From Arcobacter sp. (lineage in GTDB: Bacteria; Campylobacterota; Campylobacteria; Campylobacterales; Arcobacteraceae), in NCBI GenBank assembly GCA_965662175.1, contig CBFIGT010000076.1, forward strand, positions 1 to 10,747: DNA of 10,747 nucleotides. Direction: 5' to 3'. Made by a program: the position numbers and the translations under genes. The notes beneath the pieces are model-generated. The model was not told the DNA's origin and ran no database searches. It saw nothing but the letters and a program-made list of their open reading frames with translations. Each line of letters opens with the position of its first letter. Positions within the stretch are counted from its first letter, which is position 1. Shown here in pieces: positions 2,456 through 10,747 of this stretch.

Positions 2456-2471
2456 GTAGGTTTACCCTACT
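2455..2471. terminator. Small hairpin at the convergent junction; possible weak bidirectional terminator
   Basis: agtagg (2455-2460) and cctact (2466-2471) form a 6-bp stem with a 5-nt loop between convergent stops 11 bp apart. The stem is short and has no good U-tract. Confidence 0.3.
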
Positions 2472-3582
2472 CTTCTATACATGGAAAAGTCATAATAAAC
2501 TTTAGTCCCTTGCTACTATTTTCAACTTTTAAATTACCCTTTAAACTATTTTTTATAACGAGTTTAACCATATAAAGACCAATTCCTGTTCCTGACTCTT
2601 TTGTGGTAAAGTATGGGTCAAAAAGTTTTTCTAAGTTGTCTTCATCAATTCCACCTGCATTATCACCAATCTCTAAAAAGATAGTAGAATCTTTTTTATA
2701 TGAATTTATCTCAATAACTCTATTTTCAATATCTCTTTCATTATATGCTTGTATAGAGTTAGTTATTAAATTCATAAAAACTTGTGATAGCTCCATCTCT
2801 ACACCCATAATATAATTATCTTCAATATTTAACTTTATATCTACATTATTTTTACCAATTTGAGACTTCATTAAATCCAAAAATCCATCAATAGCTTTTT
2901 TTACTGAAATTTTTACAAAACTCTTTTCTAAAGTAAAAAAACTTAAAAAACTATCAATAGTATCACTCATATGTTTTATCTGTTTTTTTGTATTTATTGC
3001 AAAATCATCAACAGTCTCTTTATCCAACTCATCCATATCATATGAAAATTTTATATCATGGCAATATAAAGAGAGTACATTTAAAGGCTGTTTTAACTGA
3101 TGTGAAATAACACCAATCATTTCACCCATACTAGCCATTTTTGCATTATGAACTAAAAGCTTGTTAGCTTTATCTAATTCATCTGCTGAATTTCTTTTAT
3201 CTTCAAAAATATTAATAAAAACTTTTAATTTTGATGTTAATAAATCATTATCAATAGGTTTTGAAATATACTCAATTACTCCTAAATCATAACCTTTCTT
3301 TTGGTAAGAATCTTTGTCATAAATTCCAGTAATAAATATAACTGGGATATCTTTAGTTTTTTCAATACTTTTAATATAATCCACAAATTGAAAACCATCA
3401 ACATCTGGCATTTGTATATCACTTAAAATAAGGTCAACCTTATTTGTCATCAATAAAGATATGGCATCTTGAGCATTTAAAGCTGTAAAAATTTTCACAT
3501 CAAAACTATCTTCAATCATTAACTTCAAAGAGTAGATATTTTCTTCCACATCATCTAAAACTAAAATACTAAATTTATCCAT
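2467..3582 (-). CDS. Cytoplasmic hybrid response regulator/histidine kinase (REC-HisKA-HATPase_c)
   Basis: Canonical REC: ILVLDD, LILSDIQMPDVDG, PVIFIT, YISKP. H-box GVISHQLKQPLN, N-box QVFMNLITNS, G1 DNAGGI, F/G2 FDPYFTTKESGTGIGL. No TM segment and no DNA-binding domain. AGGA upstream. Confidence 0.93.
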   Translation of the reverse strand: MDKFSILVLDDVEENIYSLKLMIEDSFDVKIFTALNAQDAISLLMTNKVDLILSDIQMPDVDGFQFVDYIKSIEKTKDIPVIFITGIYDKDSYQKKGYDLGVIEYISKPIDNDLLTSKLKVFINIFEDKRNSADELDKANKLLVHNAKMASMGEMIGVISHQLKQPLNVLSLYCHDIKFSYDMDELDKETVDDFAINTKKQIKHMSDTIDSFLSFFTLEKSFVKISVKKAIDGFLDLMKSQIGKNNVDIKLNIEDNYIMGVEMELSQVFMNLITNSIQAYNERDIENRVIEINSYKKDSTIFLEIGDNAGGIDEDNLEKLFDPYFTTKESGTGIGLYMVKLVIKNSLKGNLKVENSSKGLKFIMTFPCIEE

Positions 3583-3613: not shown

Positions 3614-5431
3614 TCAAATAAGTTTTGAATAATCAGCATCCTCTAAAGGCTTTTTGAGTTCTAAAATAACTCTATTTAATACTCTTTTATCAATATCTTT
3701 TTCACTTAAAGCGATAATATTATTAATATTGTTTTTTTCAATAAGTAAAATATCATCTTCACTTAAACTATCAATATCAATTATTAGTTTTAAATCATTA
3801 CTCTTTATATCACTTAAGTTTGAAATCTGTTTGATTTTTTTATTTTGATTTTTAAGTTTTATAATTAAATTAATAAAATAAACAGGATTATTATTAAAAA
3901 CAATTAAATCAAAAGGAGAGTTTTCTAGCTTATTAATAATCTCTTTATCTAAATATTTCTCATCAGCTTTATTTAAATCTAAAACTTCTAATCCTTTTAA
4001 TAAATCCTCATTTTTAGGAATTATAAGTGTAAACTCACTTCCTTTATTTACTTGGCTAATAACACTAATATTACCTTTTAAAAGATGGGCTAACTCTTTA
4101 CAAATTGATAATCCCAGTCCTGTACCACCATACTTTCTAGTGGTACTTCCATCTACTTGTTTAAATCTATCAAAGATATGTTCTAGTTTATCTAAAGGTA
4201 TTCCAATACCTTGGTCTTTGATTTTAATAGAGATATCTTTTCCTAAATCTTCTATAATCATAGAGATTTTGCCATTGTGTGTAAACTTTAAAGAGTTACT
4301 TAAAAGATTTTTTATAATCTGTTTTAATCTATCACTATCACTATAAATATTTATTAACTTATCATCAATAGTTAAAATAAATTCAATATTCTTTTCCAAA
4401 GTTTGGGGATAAAACATGTCATATATACCATTAAAAAACTCTTTTACATTGATATTATCATTATTTAATAGAATCTGACCAGCTTCTAGTTTTGATAAAT
4501 CTAAAATATCATTAATTAAAAATAGTAAATCTTTTCCACACTTATTTATGATTCCTAAATTTTTAATTTGTTTTTCATTTAAATTATTTTCTCTATTTCT
4601 TTTCATAATATCACTAATAACATTTATAGAGTTTAGTGGGGTTTTAAGCTCATGACTCATATTAGCTAAAAAGTCATCTTTAGCTTTATTAGCTTGAACT
4701 AATTCAGACTTTTGTTTTCTAAGTATTTTATTTGAATCTTTTAAATCTTTATTTCTTTGAATTAAATTTTCCTGCATTCTATACATGGATTTTGATAAAA
4801 TTCCAATCTCATCTTTTGAGTTAGTAAATGGAATATCAGCTCTAACCTCTTTACCTATTTTTAAAGCAACATCAGAAAGTTTTGTTAGCTTTTTGGTTAG
4901 ATTACTTCCTATAATATAAGATAAGATAGTAGATATTAATATTTCTAAAAATATTATAAGTAGAGTTCTTTGTTTATTATTTTCGATAAACTGAATATTA
5001 GATGAAATATCAAAAATGATATATAAAGAACCTAAATAAATATCATCTTCAAAAAGTTGCTTATAAATTATTTCATAATATTCATCATTAATATGCATAC
5101 TTTTATTCTCTTTTATTTTTAAAAGCGCAGGCATACTTAAATATGGATATGCGAAGTTATCAGCTAAAACTCTGTCGCTATTATCTAAAATAACAACAGA
5201 ATTCATATACTTAGTTGAGTTATCAACCAAGTCATCTAAGGCAGCCATATCATATATACTAATAGGTACCTTAACTAATTGCTCTAAAAATATCGTATTA
5301 GATTCAATTTTTTCATCAATTAATTTTTTCGAACTATTTGATATAGTAATAAAGTTTACAGAAACAATTAATAAAATAAAAAAAATCTCAATTAAGACAA
5401 AAGAGATTATGAAACGATATTTAAATGACAT
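3614..5431 (-). CDS. Membrane sensor histidine kinase (TM, periplasmic domain, TM, HAMP, HisKA, HATPase_c, degenerate receiver)
   Basis: Two hydrophobic segments. HAMP (KLTKLSDVALKIG...SKDEIGILSKSMYRM). ANMSHELKTPLN, NLLSNSLKFT, DQGIGI, FKQVDGSTTRKYGGTGLGL. REC-like tail LIVFNNNP...LIIDID...IIALS...LKKP. Confidence 0.92.
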   Translation of the reverse strand: MSFKYRFIISFVLIEIFFILLIVSVNFITISNSSKKLIDEKIESNTIFLEQLVKVPISIYDMAALDDLVDNSTKYMNSVVILDNSDRVLADNFAYPYLSMPALLKIKENKSMHINDEYYEIIYKQLFEDDIYLGSLYIIFDISSNIQFIENNKQRTLLIIFLEILISTILSYIIGSNLTKKLTKLSDVALKIGKEVRADIPFTNSKDEIGILSKSMYRMQENLIQRNKDLKDSNKILRKQKSELVQANKAKDDFLANMSHELKTPLNSINVISDIMKRNRENNLNEKQIKNLGIINKCGKDLLFLINDILDLSKLEAGQILLNNDNINVKEFFNGIYDMFYPQTLEKNIEFILTIDDKLINIYSDSDRLKQIIKNLLSNSLKFTHNGKISMIIEDLGKDISIKIKDQGIGIPLDKLEHIFDRFKQVDGSTTRKYGGTGLGLSICKELAHLLKGNISVISQVNKGSEFTLIIPKNEDLLKGLEVLDLNKADEKYLDKEIINKLENSPFDLIVFNNNPVYFINLIIKLKNQNKKIKQISNLSDIKSNDLKLIIDIDSLSEDDILLIEKNNINNIIALSEKDIDKRVLNRVILELKKPLEDADYSKLI

Positions 5432-5439
5432 AGTTTTAG

Positions 5440-6222
5440 TTATTTAACTCCAATTTCTCTAATAGCATCATACTCTTTTGTTTGTGTTACAATAAAATCT
5501 TTAATACTAAGAATTTTTTTAATATCAGCTGGCATATCTAAAAATGCTTTTTGAATTTTCTCAATAGTCTCTTTTGAAACTCTTGGATGAAAAGCAATAG
5601 GATGACTTGGATATGCACTTGTTTTATAAACAATATTTATTTTATCTTTATCATTTTTATCTAAAAAATTATTATATGTTCTAATAATTCCACCACCTAA
5701 ATAACCAATATCTCTAGAAATACCTTTATAAACTGAGTCATGAGAGTTTACATACATTACTTTTGCATCTTTATCAACATCAAAACCAAATTTTTGTTTT
5801 AATTCAAATTTTGTTAATAGAGTAGCTGCAAAAGCATTAGGCGCTGGAAATAAAAATGTTTTTCCTTCTAAATTCTCTTTTGTAAACTCAACTTTTTCCT
5901 CTTTTGCTAATAAAATACCTACAATATTTTTCTTAGCCCTAATAAAAGCTTCATACTTTTGTTCATTATTTGCAACAATAAAATGATAAGGATTCATATA
6001 AGCAATATCATATTTTCCTGAATATAACTCTTTTTCAAAAAAAGGAATAGATTTTTCAGTTTTGAAAATTACATTAACTCCTGTAGCTTTTTGTAAATAA
6101 TCAGTTACTTTAATCCATTTTTTTGATAACTTCAGTGGACTTTGTTGAGGAACAACACCTAAAATTAAATCTTGCCCAAAGGCAAATACACCTAAAATCA
6201 GAATTAAAAAAATTCTTTTCAT
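5440..6222 (-). CDS. PhnD-like (phosphate/phosphite/phosphonate-binding family fold) periplasmic substrate-binding protein, ligand unknown
   Basis: Start reassigned from 6243 to ATG 6222: AAGGAG at 6233-6228 precedes it, and MKRIFLILILGVFAFG is a signal peptide (260 aa). Motifs LILGVVP, DIAYMNPYHF, LEGKTFLFP, SHDSVY and YPSHPIAFHPRV match the PhnD-type class II PBP pattern. Confidence 0.85.
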   Translation of the reverse strand: MKRIFLILILGVFAFGQDLILGVVPQQSPLKLSKKWIKVTDYLQKATGVNVIFKTEKSIPFFEKELYSGKYDIAYMNPYHFIVANNEQKYEAFIRAKKNIVGILLAKEEKVEFTKENLEGKTFLFPAPNAFAATLLTKFELKQKFGFDVDKDAKVMYVNSHDSVYKGISRDIGYLGGGIIRTYNNFLDKNDKDKINIVYKTSAYPSHPIAFHPRVSKETIEKIQKAFLDMPADIKKILSIKDFIVTQTKEYDAIREIGVK

Positions 6223-6263
6223 TAAAACTCCTTGTAATATCAACTCTTTAAAGATTATTTTTC

Positions 6264-6296: not shown

Positions 6297-7811
6297 TTAT
6301 AATTCTAACTTCTTTAAACTCTCTAATAAATCTAAATTTTTTGAAAATACGAACTCAAACTTACTACCTTTGTCAAGTTCACTTGATACATAAACATCTC
6401 CTTTTAACAACATTGCTAACTCTTTACATATTGCTAAGCCTAATCCTGTACCTCCATATTTTCTGGTAGTACTTCCATCTACTTGTTTAAATCTATCAAA
6501 TATATGCTCTAATTTATCTTTTGGTATTCCTATACCCTCATCTTCTACTATTATTCTTATATTCTCTTTATCATCTTTTACTACTAGGCTTATTCTTCCC
6601 TTTTCTGTAAACTTAAGTGCATTTGATAATAGATTCTTTATTATTTGTTTTATTCTATCTTCATCACTATAGATACTCTCTAGACTCTCATCTATTTTCA
6701 TTACAAAATCTATATTTTTCATTTTTGTTTGTGGATAAAACATATCATAAATTGAACTCATCAAATCTTTTAGATTTATGCTACTATTATTTACTATTAT
6801 TTGTCCTGCTTCTAATTTTGACAAATCAAGCACATCATTTATCAAAAACAGCAAATCTTTCCCACACTTATTTATTATTTGCAAATTCTTTACTTGTTTC
6901 TCATCAAGTTTACCTGACCTATTTTTTGCCATTACATCACTTATTACATTTATTGAGTTTAGTGGTGTTTTTAATTCATGACTCATATTTGCTAGAAAAT
7001 CATCTTTCGCTTTATTAGCTTTTATTAACTCATTTTTTTGATCTTCTAATTTATTTTTTTGAATTTCTCTAATCATGGTAAGCTGTTGCATATTAATATA
7101 AGCTTCGTTGATTCTTTTTGACATTTTATTAAAAGTATTAGCTAGTTTTTGAAGCTCATTTTTTTTCATTTTCTTAGTATTTATCTCAAAAATTTCATGC
7201 TCAACAACATCAAATCTTTTTGTTGCATCTATTATTTCATTAAGAGGCTCAATCAAATACTTACCTGTAAATATAAAAAATAGAACCCAAAGAATTATCA
7301 TACTAGCAATTAAGTTTATTAATATTAAAACAATTGACTCTTTAAGTGATGCAAATATCTCACTATTTTTCATAAATAGAGTTATAGAAGCATATTTTTT
7401 ACCAAAGGCTAATAACTCTATTTTATAACTAAGGAAATCTCCTGTAGTAATAATTTTATCAATTTGATTTTCACTTTTTTTATACTCTAAAGGAATTTCA
7501 CCATTGGAGAAGCTAAATGCATCTTTATAATCTTTTATTAGTATACCTGAGATATTTGTAGTAGCAAAAATTGTATTTGACAACTCTTGTAATTCAAAAC
7601 TATTTTCACTAATTATATGTTTAGTAAAGAGATTTTTATAAACTTTTTCAATTTTTTTTAAAGAGTTTACACTCTCTTTTTTAGAATTGCTATATTCTGA
7701 AAAGATTTGATAAAAAATAAAAATTATTACAAAAATAAAGTAAGTAATATATACTTTTTTGAAAAGCATAAAACCAATACTATTTTTATAATTCTTCAAA
7801 AAGTTAGACAT
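6297..7811 (-). CDS. Membrane sensor histidine kinase (TM, periplasmic domain, TM, HAMP, HisKA, HATPase_c), no receiver tail
   Basis: Two TMs. HAMP (IEPLNEIIDATKRF...NELQKLANTFNKM). H, N, G1, F and G2 boxes intact. Ends shortly after the HATPase domain. ATG is 1 bp after the upstream stop (TAA-T-ATG). Confidence 0.92.
   Translation of the reverse strand: MSNFLKNYKNSIGFMLFKKVYITYFIFVIIFIFYQIFSEYSNSKKESVNSLKKIEKVYKNLFTKHIISENSFELQELSNTIFATTNISGILIKDYKDAFSFSNGEIPLEYKKSENQIDKIITTGDFLSYKIELLAFGKKYASITLFMKNSEIFASLKESIVLILINLIASMIILWVLFFIFTGKYLIEPLNEIIDATKRFDVVEHEIFEINTKKMKKNELQKLANTFNKMSKRINEAYINMQQLTMIREIQKNKLEDQKNELIKANKAKDDFLANMSHELKTPLNSINVISDVMAKNRSGKLDEKQVKNLQIINKCGKDLLFLINDVLDLSKLEAGQIIVNNSSINLKDLMSSIYDMFYPQTKMKNIDFVMKIDESLESIYSDEDRIKQIIKNLLSNALKFTEKGRISLVVKDDKENIRIIVEDEGIGIPKDKLEHIFDRFKQVDGSTTRKYGGTGLGLAICKELAMLLKGDVYVSSELDKGSKFEFVFSKNLDLLESLKKLEL
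6354..7013. repeat. Direct repeat copy A (660 bp) encoding the HisKA-HATPase core
   Basis: Manual alignment with 8209-8868 (offset 1855) is ungapped, with mismatches only at 6780/8635, 6974/8829, 6999/8854 and 7008/8863. Confidence 0.97.
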
Positions 7812-7812
7812 A

Positions 7813-10287
7813 TTATAGTTCCATTAGTTTTCTAAGTTCAATATCATCCATAATTTTATTTATAGATAAAACTATTCTATCTTCAATCTCCATAACTTTA
7901 ATGTTATTTTCTCTTATTCCAACTATATTTCTAATATTATTTTCATTTATTATTTTTATATCATTTTCATCAATTCTAGTTAAATCAATCAAAATATACT
8001 CTTTATTATTTTTAATATCTTCTAAGTTCATTACTTGGATAATATTTTTATAATTTCTAACTTTACTTATAAGTTCAATATTAGTAACAGGATCACTATT
8101 ATAAATAAAAATTCTTTCTTCATTTGATTTAAAGATAGTTTCTTGTTTATTTTTTATATCTAAAAGAGCTAAACTCTCAAGAAGTCCTTCATTTTTGGCA
8201 ATTGTTACCTCAAACTTACTACCTTTGTCAAGTTCACTTGATACATAAACATCTCCTTTTAACAACATTGCTAACTCTTTACATATTGCTAAGCCTAATC
8301 CTGTACCTCCATATTTTCTGGTAGTACTTCCATCTACTTGTTTAAATCTATCAAATATATGCTCTAATTTATCTTTTGGTATTCCTATACCCTCATCTTC
8401 TACTATTATTCTTATATTCTCTTTATCATCTTTTACTACTAGGCTTATTCTTCCCTTTTCTGTAAACTTAAGTGCATTTGATAATAGATTCTTTATTATT
8501 TGTTTTATTCTATCTTCATCACTATAGATACTCTCTAGACTCTCATCTATTTTCATTACAAAATCTATATTTTTCATTTTTGTTTGTGGATAAAACATAT
8601 CATAAATTGAACTCATCAAATCTTTTAGATTTATACTACTATTATTTACTATTATTTGTCCTGCTTCTAATTTTGACAAATCAAGCACATCATTTATCAA
8701 AAACAGCAAATCTTTCCCACACTTATTTATTATTTGCAAATTCTTTACTTGTTTCTCATCAAGTTTACCTGACCTATTTTTTGCCATTACATCACTTATT
8801 ACATTTATTGAGTTTAGTGGTGTTTTTAGTTCATGACTCATATTTGCTAGAAAGTCATCTTTTGCTTTTGAAAGCTCCTCAGCTTCAACCTTTGCTTCAT
8901 AAAGTCTTTGAGTCCTTTCATTTAGTTCATTCATCATAGTTACAAAATTACTATTAAGTGTATAAATCTCAGAAATATCAGTATCTAGAAGTTCAATTTT
9001 ACTATCTGTAGTTTTGATTTGTGAAGTTTCATCTGAAAGCTTTTCGATTGGCTCTGTAATAGTTTTTGAAAAACCTCTTATTTTTTTCAAAAGTAAATAG
9101 AAAAATATTACATAAAAAACCAATAAAAGAGCAATTGCTATATATCCTATTTTATTAGATAACTCTTTTAACTCATTAATAGTTTTAAAGATATTATCTT
9201 TATCAATTAATATCATTAATTTCCAACTTGTTTCATCAACATTTTGCTGTAATGTTAAATACTCTTTATTAGAAATCTTCAAAGAATCCATAGTTTTATT
9301 ATTTTCAATTAAATTTTTAAAGTGTGCAGCAAAAGGTGAGGCATTTGTTAAGATATTAAACTTTTCAGGTTTTTCAATAGTTTTTAAAATTGCATCTGTA
9401 TATAAATGCTCTTTTAACTCTTTTAATCCTAAAAGATTCTCTATTTTTTCAGACATAGCAATAATCATACCTGTTTCATCTACCATAAAAAGATTAGCTC
9501 CATATGGAAGTTTTCTATTTAAAATATTTTTTACAAAATCATCAATTGTAATATCTAAACCTGTAACACCCTCTAAAAAATCATTTTTATAAATAGGAAC
9601 AATACATGATAACATCCAACCGTTTCCAGCAGGATCCAAATAAGCACCCGTCCAAGCAGGCTCTTTTTTTGGATTATGTTTTAAGTCAGCTAAGTAATAG
9701 AAATTATAATCTTCCATTTGAATATGTGATCCATACTGTTCATAAACTTTATCAATAAAAGGATAAAGTCTATTCATATTATCCCAACTATTAAAATAAG
9801 AGGCTACGATATTAGGATTTGCATCTACTATATTTTTTAGATTTATATCCATAGCTTCTGTAAATAAAGCCTTATCTAAACTCTCTTTATCAATTTTTGT
9901 ATTTGCTGAATAGTATAAACTAGCTCCAACATTATTTGTTTTATAAAAAACTCCATTTTCAGCTTTTTCAAAACTTGGTTTACCATTTGGATAAGCAAAA
10001 CCTTTTGGGTTTTCAAATATTGTTTGATGTTCAGCTTGTAAGATACGTGCTAATCTAGATACTTCATTTAATTTATCACTAATAAAATTAGCTTCATTTA
10101 AAAGTAAAGCTTGTGTATGTGTTTGTGCTTCATTTAATAACAATTTAACATTTTTTGATGAAATGTAAGCGTTAATAGAAAAATACATAATTAAAAGTGT
10201 CACTTCAACAACTAATATTGGAATCAGTGAGAACTTCACAAAATGTGAAGAGAGTATCTTATCAAGCTTTTTATAAACGGTTTTCAT
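7813..10287 (-). CDS. dCache_1-type sensor histidine kinase (TM, dCache, TM, HAMP, HisKA, HATPase_c, degenerate receiver)
   Basis: About 340-aa extracytoplasmic region with Cache motifs PAWTGAYLDPAGNGWMLSCIVPIY...GVTGLDITID and LFMVDETGMIIA...SWKLMILI. TM2 IGYIAIALLLVFYVIFFYLLL, HAMP (ITEPIEKL...EIYTLNSNFVTM), intact kinase boxes, REC-like tail. Confidence 0.93.
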   Translation of the reverse strand: MKTVYKKLDKILSSHFVKFSLIPILVVEVTLLIMYFSINAYISSKNVKLLLNEAQTHTQALLLNEANFISDKLNEVSRLARILQAEHQTIFENPKGFAYPNGKPSFEKAENGVFYKTNNVGASLYYSANTKIDKESLDKALFTEAMDINLKNIVDANPNIVASYFNSWDNMNRLYPFIDKVYEQYGSHIQMEDYNFYYLADLKHNPKKEPAWTGAYLDPAGNGWMLSCIVPIYKNDFLEGVTGLDITIDDFVKNILNRKLPYGANLFMVDETGMIIAMSEKIENLLGLKELKEHLYTDAILKTIEKPEKFNILTNASPFAAHFKNLIENNKTMDSLKISNKEYLTLQQNVDETSWKLMILIDKDNIFKTINELKELSNKIGYIAIALLLVFYVIFFYLLLKKIRGFSKTITEPIEKLSDETSQIKTTDSKIELLDTDISEIYTLNSNFVTMMNELNERTQRLYEAKVEAEELSKAKDDFLANMSHELKTPLNSINVISDVMAKNRSGKLDEKQVKNLQIINKCGKDLLFLINDVLDLSKLEAGQIIVNNSSINLKDLMSSIYDMFYPQTKMKNIDFVMKIDESLESIYSDEDRIKQIIKNLLSNALKFTEKGRISLVVKDDKENIRIIVEDEGIGIPKDKLEHIFDRFKQVDGSTTRKYGGTGLGLAICKELAMLLKGDVYVSSELDKGSKFEVTIAKNEGLLESLALLDIKNKQETIFKSNEERIFIYNSDPVTNIELISKVRNYKNIIQVMNLEDIKNNKEYILIDLTRIDENDIKIINENNIRNIVGIRENNIKVMEIEDRIVLSINKIMDDIELRKLMEL
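8152..8199. repeat. 48-bp segment identical to 10700-10747 (post-HATPase linker AKNEGLLESLALLDIK)
   Basis: ttttatatctaaaagagctaaactctcaagaagtccttcatttttggc occurs exactly at both positions (offset 2548). Confidence 0.95.
8209..8868. repeat. Direct repeat copy B (660 bp) encoding the HisKA-HATPase core
   Basis: 656/660 identical to 6354-7013. The encoded 220 aa (KAKDDF...GSKFE) are identical. Confidence 0.97.
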
Positions 10288-10303: not shown

Positions 10304-10747
10304 CTATATTTTTTCTAAAATTGTTTCATTAATAGGTTTTTTCAAGCAAATAGAGTTATTACTATCAAAACCTTTAATATTATCTTCATAGATTATTATC
10401 AAATCGTCTTTATCAAATGAACTATTTAATAAACTTATCTCATCATCAGATATTTTTGAAATATCTATAATTACTTTCCTTTTAATATCTTTATAACTAT
10501 TTATTAAGAAAGTTAAATCTGAACTTTGTTTTACATTAAACTTTTTATTTAAAATAATGATAACAGAAAAGAGATTAATAGGGTCATTATTAAAAACTAA
10601 AATCTCTTTTTTCTCGTCAGTTTTTTCTATAAAATCAACTTTATCTTCAATTTCTTCATATTTTTCATTATGCTCTTTTTCTTTATTATTGATATCTTCT
10701 TTTATATCTAAAAGAGCTAAACTCTCAAGAAGTCCTTCATTTTTGGC
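10304..10747 (-). CDS. 3' end of a further sensor histidine kinase (linker plus degenerate receiver), 5'-partial and absent from the ORF track
   Basis: Hand translation: AKNEGLLESLALLDIKEDINNKEKEHNEKYEEIEDKVDFIEKTDEKKEILVFNNDPINLFSVIIILNKKFNVKQSSDLTFLINSYKDIKRKVIIDISKISDDEISLLNSSFDKDDLIIIYEDNIKGFDSNNSICLKKPINETILEKI*. TAG at 10306-10304. The first 16 aa are identical to the linker of 7813..10287. Confidence 0.9.
   Translation of the reverse strand, partial: AKNEGLLESLALLDIKEDINNKEKEHNEKYEEIEDKVDFIEKTDEKKEILVFNNDPINLFSVIIILNKKFNVKQSSDLTFLINSYKDIKRKVIIDISKISDDEISLLNSSFDKDDLIIIYEDNIKGFDSNNSICLKKPINETILEKI
10700..10747. repeat. Exact 48-bp copy of 8152-8199 running off the window edge; probable 3' boundary of a third kinase-core copy
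   Basis: Identity is unbroken to the last base of the window. Confidence 0.9.

Follow-up and report, generated by a model that had tools for sequence, protein, structure and literature searches.

Recurrent homogenization of a histidine kinase core between neighboring kinases with different sensors in Arcobacter

We analyzed a 10,747-nucleotide (nt) stretch of Arcobacter sp. DNA (GenBank contig CBFIGT010000076.1; hereafter the window), which is the whole of contig C76 of a 249-contig assembly (GCA_965662175.1, G000) and carries two adjacent sensor histidine kinases, HK-B and HK-C, with near-identical catalytic cores. Comparison with related genomes shows that these cores were homogenized recurrently, after the lineages split, and are the product neither of one duplication nor of an assembly artifact. 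The best overall explanation, in which we have high confidence, is that recombination homogenizes the cores of tandem kinases and that this is tolerated through a shared output.

Direct alignment within the window of core copy C (minus strand, 6354–7013; HisKA, the DHp domain, plus HATPase_c of HK-C) and core copy B (minus strand, 8209–8868; the same two domains of HK-B) gave 656/660 identical nt without gaps and identical proteins, exactly the match that a first-pass annotation of the window had reported. The four differences, at 6780/8635, 6974/8829, 6999/8854 and 7008/8863 (coding-strand core positions 234, 40, 15 and 6), are all synonymous (AGC/AGT Ser, TTA/CTA Leu, GAT/GAC Asp and GCG/GCA Ala, respectively), and, as that annotation noticed, three of them lie near the gene-5′ edge. 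Its description of the repeat as approximately HisKA plus HATPase also held: the repeat spans residues 267–486 of the 504-amino acid (aa) HK-C, from the first HisKA residue to near the end of HATPase_c, compared to above-cutoff Pfam matches at residues 268–336 (HisKA) and 383–490 (HATPase_c). These matches, together with a phospho-accepting histidine that is invariant in the 133 family cores surveyed below, identify HisKA-type sensor histidine kinases. Outside the repeat, 30-nt windows on the same diagonal match at only 3–17 of 30 positions, in agreement with the reported lack of such identity in the flanks. Among six repeats of at least 150 nt at ≥90% identity in the window assembly, this one is the longest; repeats of 164–187 nt at 91–92% between contigs C243/C67, C13/C77 and C25/C77 presumably resemble chemoreceptor signaling tips.

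The sensors of HK-C and HK-B, which we call A and B, have orthologs that adjoin each other, as in the window, in three congeneric assemblies: G001 (1 contig), G007 (3 contigs) and G004 (approximately 40 contigs). Within genomes, the two cores are 99.4% identical in the window, 99.7% in G007 and 99.2% in G001, compared to 97.4–97.9% between G001 and G007 and 80.6–81.2% between the window and either. Informative sites group the cores by genome rather than by ortholog at a ratio of 121:0 for window/G007, 122:0 for window/G001 and, with one site crossing, 12:0 for G001/G007. In a careful DNA tree of 17 cores, hand-picked from the 133, the two window cores form a starred clade, as do the two of G007, and the two G001 cores are unresolved beside the G007 pair within a starred four-row clade. 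Approximately unbiased (AU) tests on these 17 cores rejected grouping by sensor, for the sensor-A cores (p = 2e-9) as well as for the sensor-B cores (p = 4e-12). Silent differences in codons for the same residue number 4/213 within the window pair versus 44/173 between orthologs (Fisher p = 5e-13). The core-versus-sensor tree comparison that the first-pass annotation proposed thus came out as it anticipated, with cores clustering by genome and sensors pairing by orthologous position, also in the 1- and 3-contig assemblies, and the site ratios and AU tests favor repeated homogenization; the annotation had preferred ongoing gene conversion or recent domain shuffling to whole-gene duplication. 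As in concerted evolution, the paralogs are closer than the orthologs, the flanking loci are older than the tract and silent sites are homogenized.

The G004 assembly is interrupted at each of the two cores: two contigs end in one and the same 141 nt, beginning with the first core codon, and two contigs begin with one and the same 141 nt, which ends in the linker. Cores that cluster by genome, silent sites that are free to change and these breaks make a single old duplication, protein-level selection and a short-read artifact all unlikely. An artifact of assembly or polishing, in which one consensus core was pasted twice, would suit an assembly of 249 contigs with many 77-nt end overlaps, in which the window contig ends in the repeat family and the block order around the repeat may be mis-joined. 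However, the same pattern is present in the 1- and 3-contig assemblies, the copies differ at silent sites, and contigs of four runs from four studies carry the core as an unbroken stretch of 545 nt or more that differs at few positions; we consider this explanation highly improbable. Core depth, approximately 1.3–2.6x that of the flanking pieces, points the same way but weakly, as depth is not copy number and the figure comes from 32 of 418 rows. Purifying selection alone, at the protein or DNA level, could explain why the G001 and G007 cores (97.4–97.9%) are more similar than their sensors (90.7–94.3%), but silent sites drift between genomes (44/173 codons) and the window proteins are only 80% identical to those of G001 and G007, so we give it virtually no credence. 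A strain-specific chimera from one recent duplication or domain-shuffling event would fit both the four silent differences and a window gene order that differs from that of relatives. It is very unlikely given the age of both sensor types (carried by 24 and 29 of the 133 cores) and their adjacency in four congeneric genomes, each with a genome-specific core, and it is contradicted by the 121:0 and 12:0 site patterns.

The ends of the tract bear on how the cores are copied. The 5′ edge of identity lies where sensor-specific sequence ends, and it falls at the same codon in the four congeneric genomes because homology simply begins there; in G080, a genome of another genus with a 660/660 core pair attached to sensors D and X, the linkers are alike and the edge lies 28 nt further upstream. 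The 3′ edge coincides with the core end in window copies B and C, extends 57 nt further between B and a third kinase tail (tail A, below) and approximately 30 nt further in G007, and is frayed from position 621 in G001. Nine of the 11 residual differences in three pairs fall within 45 nt of a tract end, a cutoff chosen after seeing the data. Varying ends that are set by homology point to homologous recombination limited by homology, and the sharp-edged cassette of the first-pass annotation has no fixed ends, as the 3′ end of identity differs among species. A site-specific cassette, shufflon or mobile element that inserts the core would account for the constant congeneric 5′ edge but not for the other, varying ends; no inverted repeat flanks the core among the longest 25 of 104, and no recombinase or transposase family was found among the seven window proteins scanned, a search that did not extend to the remaining genome. 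We regard such an element as hardly credible.

RecA was found in all five genomes checked. MutL_C was found in 0/5, and mutL and mutS1 exceeded their cutoffs in 0/5, whereas controls did so in 11/14 cases. A lack of MutSL mismatch repair generally eases recombination between diverged sequences, and we infer a low barrier to recombination between diverged copies here. A 988-aa MutS-like protein below the mutS1 cutoff is encoded at C15:9102–11708 of G000; similar matches occur in the four other genomes checked, in none of which a MutL was found.

Exchange may also have occurred across the core. The tails of the sensor-B kinases of G001 and G007 share 54–56% identity with that of a sensor-D kinase of G006 and at most 41% with other nearest tails, suggesting such exchange. 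In one such comparison, the sensor-B tail at L021:13215–13616 (G007) and the sensor-D tail at L029:13161–13565 (G006) are 56% identical, and both lie directly before a gene for a REC-HisKA-HATPase protein (hereafter REC-kinase); a sensor swap across the core is the likely origin of this likeness. The B/D tail similarity would also be expected if the cores were homogenized by repeated unequal crossover, that is, tandem amplification and collapse through the core, instead of by nonreciprocal conversion. Under that scheme, the window's at least three copies compared to two in G001, G007 and G004 would be natural, and all four converted pairs are on the same strand (4/18 versus 0/6 for opposite strands, too small to weigh). 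Gene order and sensor-tail links nevertheless stayed stable in G001 and G007 while 12 substitutions reached both copies, and we consider repeated unequal crossover unlikely.

To describe the family, we searched 174 family genomes, of which 71 matched at E ≤1e-62 (with 17 candidates scored in each genome and 150 of the 151 matches listed). Genomes with at least two matches plus earlier loci formed the survey set, with 19 single-match genomes left out, and yielded 133 cores (52 genomes), which form 126 within-genome pairs (48 genomes); a separate 73-locus scan, whose genomes may overlap, was not added. Only 4/126 pairs (window, G001, G007 and G080) are ≥99% identical, all of them neighbors on the same strand and 1.9–4.1 kb apart. 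One further G080 pair (L229, L230) is 88.7% identical over 504 nt with an 89-nt identical run, and the other 121/126 are at most 78.8% identical, most pairs falling between 58 and 79% in DNA. This pair appears partly homogenized, and the L229 and L230 contigs both stop at one core position, which may reflect a further repeat that the assembly did not resolve. Pairs at ≥99% make up 4/24 same-locus pairs versus 0/102 others (Fisher p = 0.001, with kin not independent) and, among sensor A/B pairs, 3/3 adjacent versus 0/6 non-adjacent ones (65.6–72.1%). On these comparisons, homogenization is pair-specific and confined to particular neighbors; HK-D, a kinase of the same family in the window, is a neighbor whose core escaped it.

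Short-read assemblies hide such pairs. G004 gave no core match in the family search despite its sensor A/B pair, and since collapsed pairs of this kind escape the count, four pairs is a lower bound. In a quick protein tree of the cores, sensor types are mixed at several depths (e.g., X and D in G182), a pattern suggestive of earlier events from which copies later escaped. A FastTree tree of the cores has 19 changes of sensor type (126 labeled rows, five types, minimum 4), a count of little weight as it has no shuffle control.

Partner-contact residues lie in DHp helix 1, as placed by work on EnvZ. DHp residues 8–21 are 94–100% conserved over the 133 cores, so the paralogs do not appear insulated from each other even where no conversion occurs. 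The first-pass annotation started from the premise that paralogous kinases diverge in the DHp domain to avoid cross-talk; this applies weakly to a family with near-invariant DHp helix 1, although divergence as such is real, most pairs being 58–79% identical in DNA. A REC-kinase homolog is present in 16/36 top loci, beside sensors A, B, D or X. The gene neighborhood at these loci and the DHp conservation are the basis for proposing a shared-receiver network in which the window's REC-kinase (2467–3582) may serve as the common phospho-acceptor of the family cores, a role to which we assign slightly less than an even chance. A re-copied core probably lets different signals feed one output, and mixed HK-B/HK-C dimers are plausible with identical DHp domains. 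In L242 (G009), a 280-aa sensor-A open reading frame (minus strand, 1483–2322) just downstream of the REC-kinase ends at the sensor/core junction without a kinase core and could be either a sensor-only remnant or a silent module.

Homogenization recurred after the lineages split, and the tract ends show that it stops where homology does. We hypothesize that homologous recombination between tandem members, in the only homologous part they have, the approximately 0.66–0.72-kb core, repeatedly overwrites one copy with the other. The route would be gene conversion that depends on RecA and is facilitated by missing MutSL repair. Homogenization may be tolerated because insulation between family members never arose and all of them act on the same output. 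Selection would keep both sensors, since crossover between direct repeats would otherwise delete one; both are retained in four species despite the deletion-prone direct repeat.

Several observations weigh against this account. The window copies come from a fragmented assembly, which could overstate their identity. Three of the four ≥99% pairs, plus G004, come from one genus, with which the contrast between adjacent and non-adjacent pairs is confounded, and 20/24 same-locus pairs, including HK-D at a distance of 2.3 kb, are at most 78.8% identical. MutL was checked in just five genomes, two of them fragmented, and the data do not tell nonreciprocal conversion from cycles of unequal crossover. 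The REC-kinase is absent from 20/36 loci, several of which are short.

With two to three kinases keeping an identical transmitter over a core divergence of approximately 0.22 substitutions/site, the array is a well-controlled natural counterexample to the expectation that DHp divergence is obligatory among paralogous kinases, and it is suited to testing whether signals converge and heterodimers form. In trees of the kinase domain, old sensor genes of this kind can be misdated as recent duplications. A more speculative idea, which we consider doubtful, is that the core is both a selected common transmitter and a standing recombination platform, with several sensors wired to one co-evolving core. 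If so, a compensatory change in the core would reach all inputs at once, mixed dimers would integrate signals, and crossover through the core would create new combinations of sensor and pseudo-receiver tail in populations. Should this hold generally, many kinase duplications that look recent and carry shuffled sensors would in fact be old genes whose cores were converted.

Concerted evolution of bacterial paralogs, such as tufA/tufB and rRNA operons, is marked by genome-wise clustering, homogenized silent sites and differences at tract ends. Here, in contrast, it affects one domain pair inside otherwise unrelated genes and particular neighbors only. The process is an ordinary, known one, probably gene conversion, of which the kinase core is a further instance; no paper on concerted evolution of kinase cores appeared in our searches of a literature collection with few subscription journals. 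The closest analog in the published text we covered is Tlp2/Tlp3/Tlp4 of Campylobacter jejuni, paralogous receptors of the same bacterial order with varied, approximately 30% identical sensors and identical signaling domains (PMC9769880). Their identical halves are DNA repeats and proposed recombination sites (PMC6433261), and trees of the signaling domains track the genome tree; the covered text of these two papers (PMC9769880, PMC6433261) does not term the process concerted evolution. The Tlp sensors are homologous dCache_1 domains; sensors A and B, in contrast, fall in different clusters. Chemoreceptors all feed CheA, and a common output is to be expected of them, whereas the part homogenized here is a catalytic kinase core with its partner-recognition helix.

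Alm, Huang and Arkin (2006; PMC1630713) described lineage-specific histidine kinase expansion by duplication followed by sensor exchange, in a main text in which the word "conversion" occurs 0 times. Like the kinases treated in that text, those in the window have close kinase domains within one genome and different N-terminal sensors and are often orphans; unlike in the model given there, the old sensor genes stay put and only their core is overwritten, a history that an analysis of that type would count as recent duplication. As outlined in PMC8175716, GacS-cluster multikinase networks contain duplicated hybrid kinases with relaxed specificity and convergent output, and PMC12632262, in the portion covered, describes ShkA and CikA as kinases with pseudo-receivers that may regulate the kinase. 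To the extent of these accounts, the window kinases resemble the former in related cores and, as proposed above, would share with it relaxed insulation and convergence on one output, and they resemble the latter in having a pseudo-receiver, but HK-B and HK-C have no intact receiver or HPt and, unlike in the GacS network, their cores are identical in DNA.

By domain content, HK-B and HK-C are members of a family of orphan, hybrid-like kinases found in the Arcobacteraceae, with the layout sensor, HisKA/HATPase core and pseudo-receiver tail. HK-B (824 aa; minus strand, 7813..10287; Pfam and fold prediction) comprises sensor B (minus strand, 8869–10287), which is dCache_1-like with a match below the Pfam cutoff, a weak HAMP, core B and tail B (minus strand, 7813–8208). 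HK-C (504 aa; minus strand, 6297..7811; Pfam) comprises sensor A (minus strand, 7014–7811), core C and an 18-aa tail (minus strand, 6297–6353). Sensor A is apparently arranged as transmembrane, periplasmic, transmembrane and HAMP segments, with a periplasmic part that has no confident family; Pfam matched HAMP in 11/20 sensor-A members and only a weak CHASE5 in 4/20.

Folded with a 56-tail alignment, tail B was predicted as a five-strand alpha/beta domain (predicted local distance difference test score, 81.8). Its top structural matches are mostly receiver domains (best E = 2.6e-3), and a profile search returned response regulators at E = 0.013–0.17. Across the 56 tails, the first position of the DD pair is N in 54 and H in 2, D is kept in 49/56, K is kept in 47/56 and the T position is mostly not S or T. 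The tails therefore lack the full set of five receiver active-site residues (DD, D, T and K) of canonical hybrid kinases and, on sequence and predicted fold, are pseudo-receivers by the definition in the covered part of PMC12632262. Tails cut to 16–25 aa are found on sensors A, B and D: in the window (6297–6353), at the start of L030 (G004), in L172 (G104) and in L191 (G115). From their occurrence in different genomes, we read these short tails as repeated pseudo-receiver loss.

The window also contains the end of a third kinase, which the first-pass annotation missed. The last 48 nt of the window (10700–10747) are identical to the stretch just after core B (minus strand, 8152..8199) and open tail A (minus strand, 10304..10747), the C-terminal 147 aa of a kinase that is cut by the contig end and whose core and sensor lie beyond it; the repeat family thus has at least three copies. 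In one contig from run X4, a 702-nt stretch of core plus linker (8152–8853, 1 difference) continues into 250 nt of tail A, and so a third near-identical core exists in the species, although BLASTn, tBLASTn and contig-end matching did not find it in the window assembly. Contig C237 of this assembly ends (C237:1–200) inside the N-terminus of another family kinase, with sensor X, behind a 360-aa gene that we take to encode a FIST protein. At locus L060, the same FIST-candidate and sensor X genes lie directly before a binding protein, a sensor-D kinase and the REC-kinase, and this synteny links tail A with the sensor X N-terminus on C237; sensor X would then own the third core. Two other candidates were rejected: a further sensor-A gene in the role of the missing one, as G000 has a single match only, and contig C216 as the direct upstream neighbor, as its end carries the first part of a gene unrelated to the array.

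How sensors and tails pair across the repeat is here taken from the assembly order of C76, and blocks between cores could be joined otherwise. The alternative order, X-core-tail B, A-core-tail A and B-core-short tail, is about evenly matched with the assembled one and would agree with G004, which has a long tail on sensor A and a 25-aa tail on sensor B. Tail similarity (best matches just 33–45%) and the run contigs, which collapse variants and derive from other strains, say little about the pairing. This doubt leaves the homogenization result untouched. A metagenome scan with HK-C gave 18 loci, the best at 69%, none of them useful.

The array, which lies on the minus strand, consists in gene order of tail A, HK-B, HK-C, a binding protein, HK-D and the REC-kinase. 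The periplasmic binding protein (5440..6243; Pfam Phosphonate-bd family) is of a kind that in relatives usually lies directly upstream of sensor-D kinases. HK-D (605 aa; 3614..5431), a fourth family kinase not picked up in the first-pass annotation, consists of sensor D, a core at approximately 4031–4687 that is 72% identical to B/C, and a tail. The REC-kinase (371 aa; 2467..3582; Pfam) is the last gene of the array, with a terminator-like site near its end (2454–2472). A promoter scan of the window was at chance level (52 sites versus 63.8 expected). The protein encoded at 94–1872 has a weak fn3 match; its counterpart in G001 and G007 is 862 aa long, and in the window assembly its N-terminus is on contig C163.

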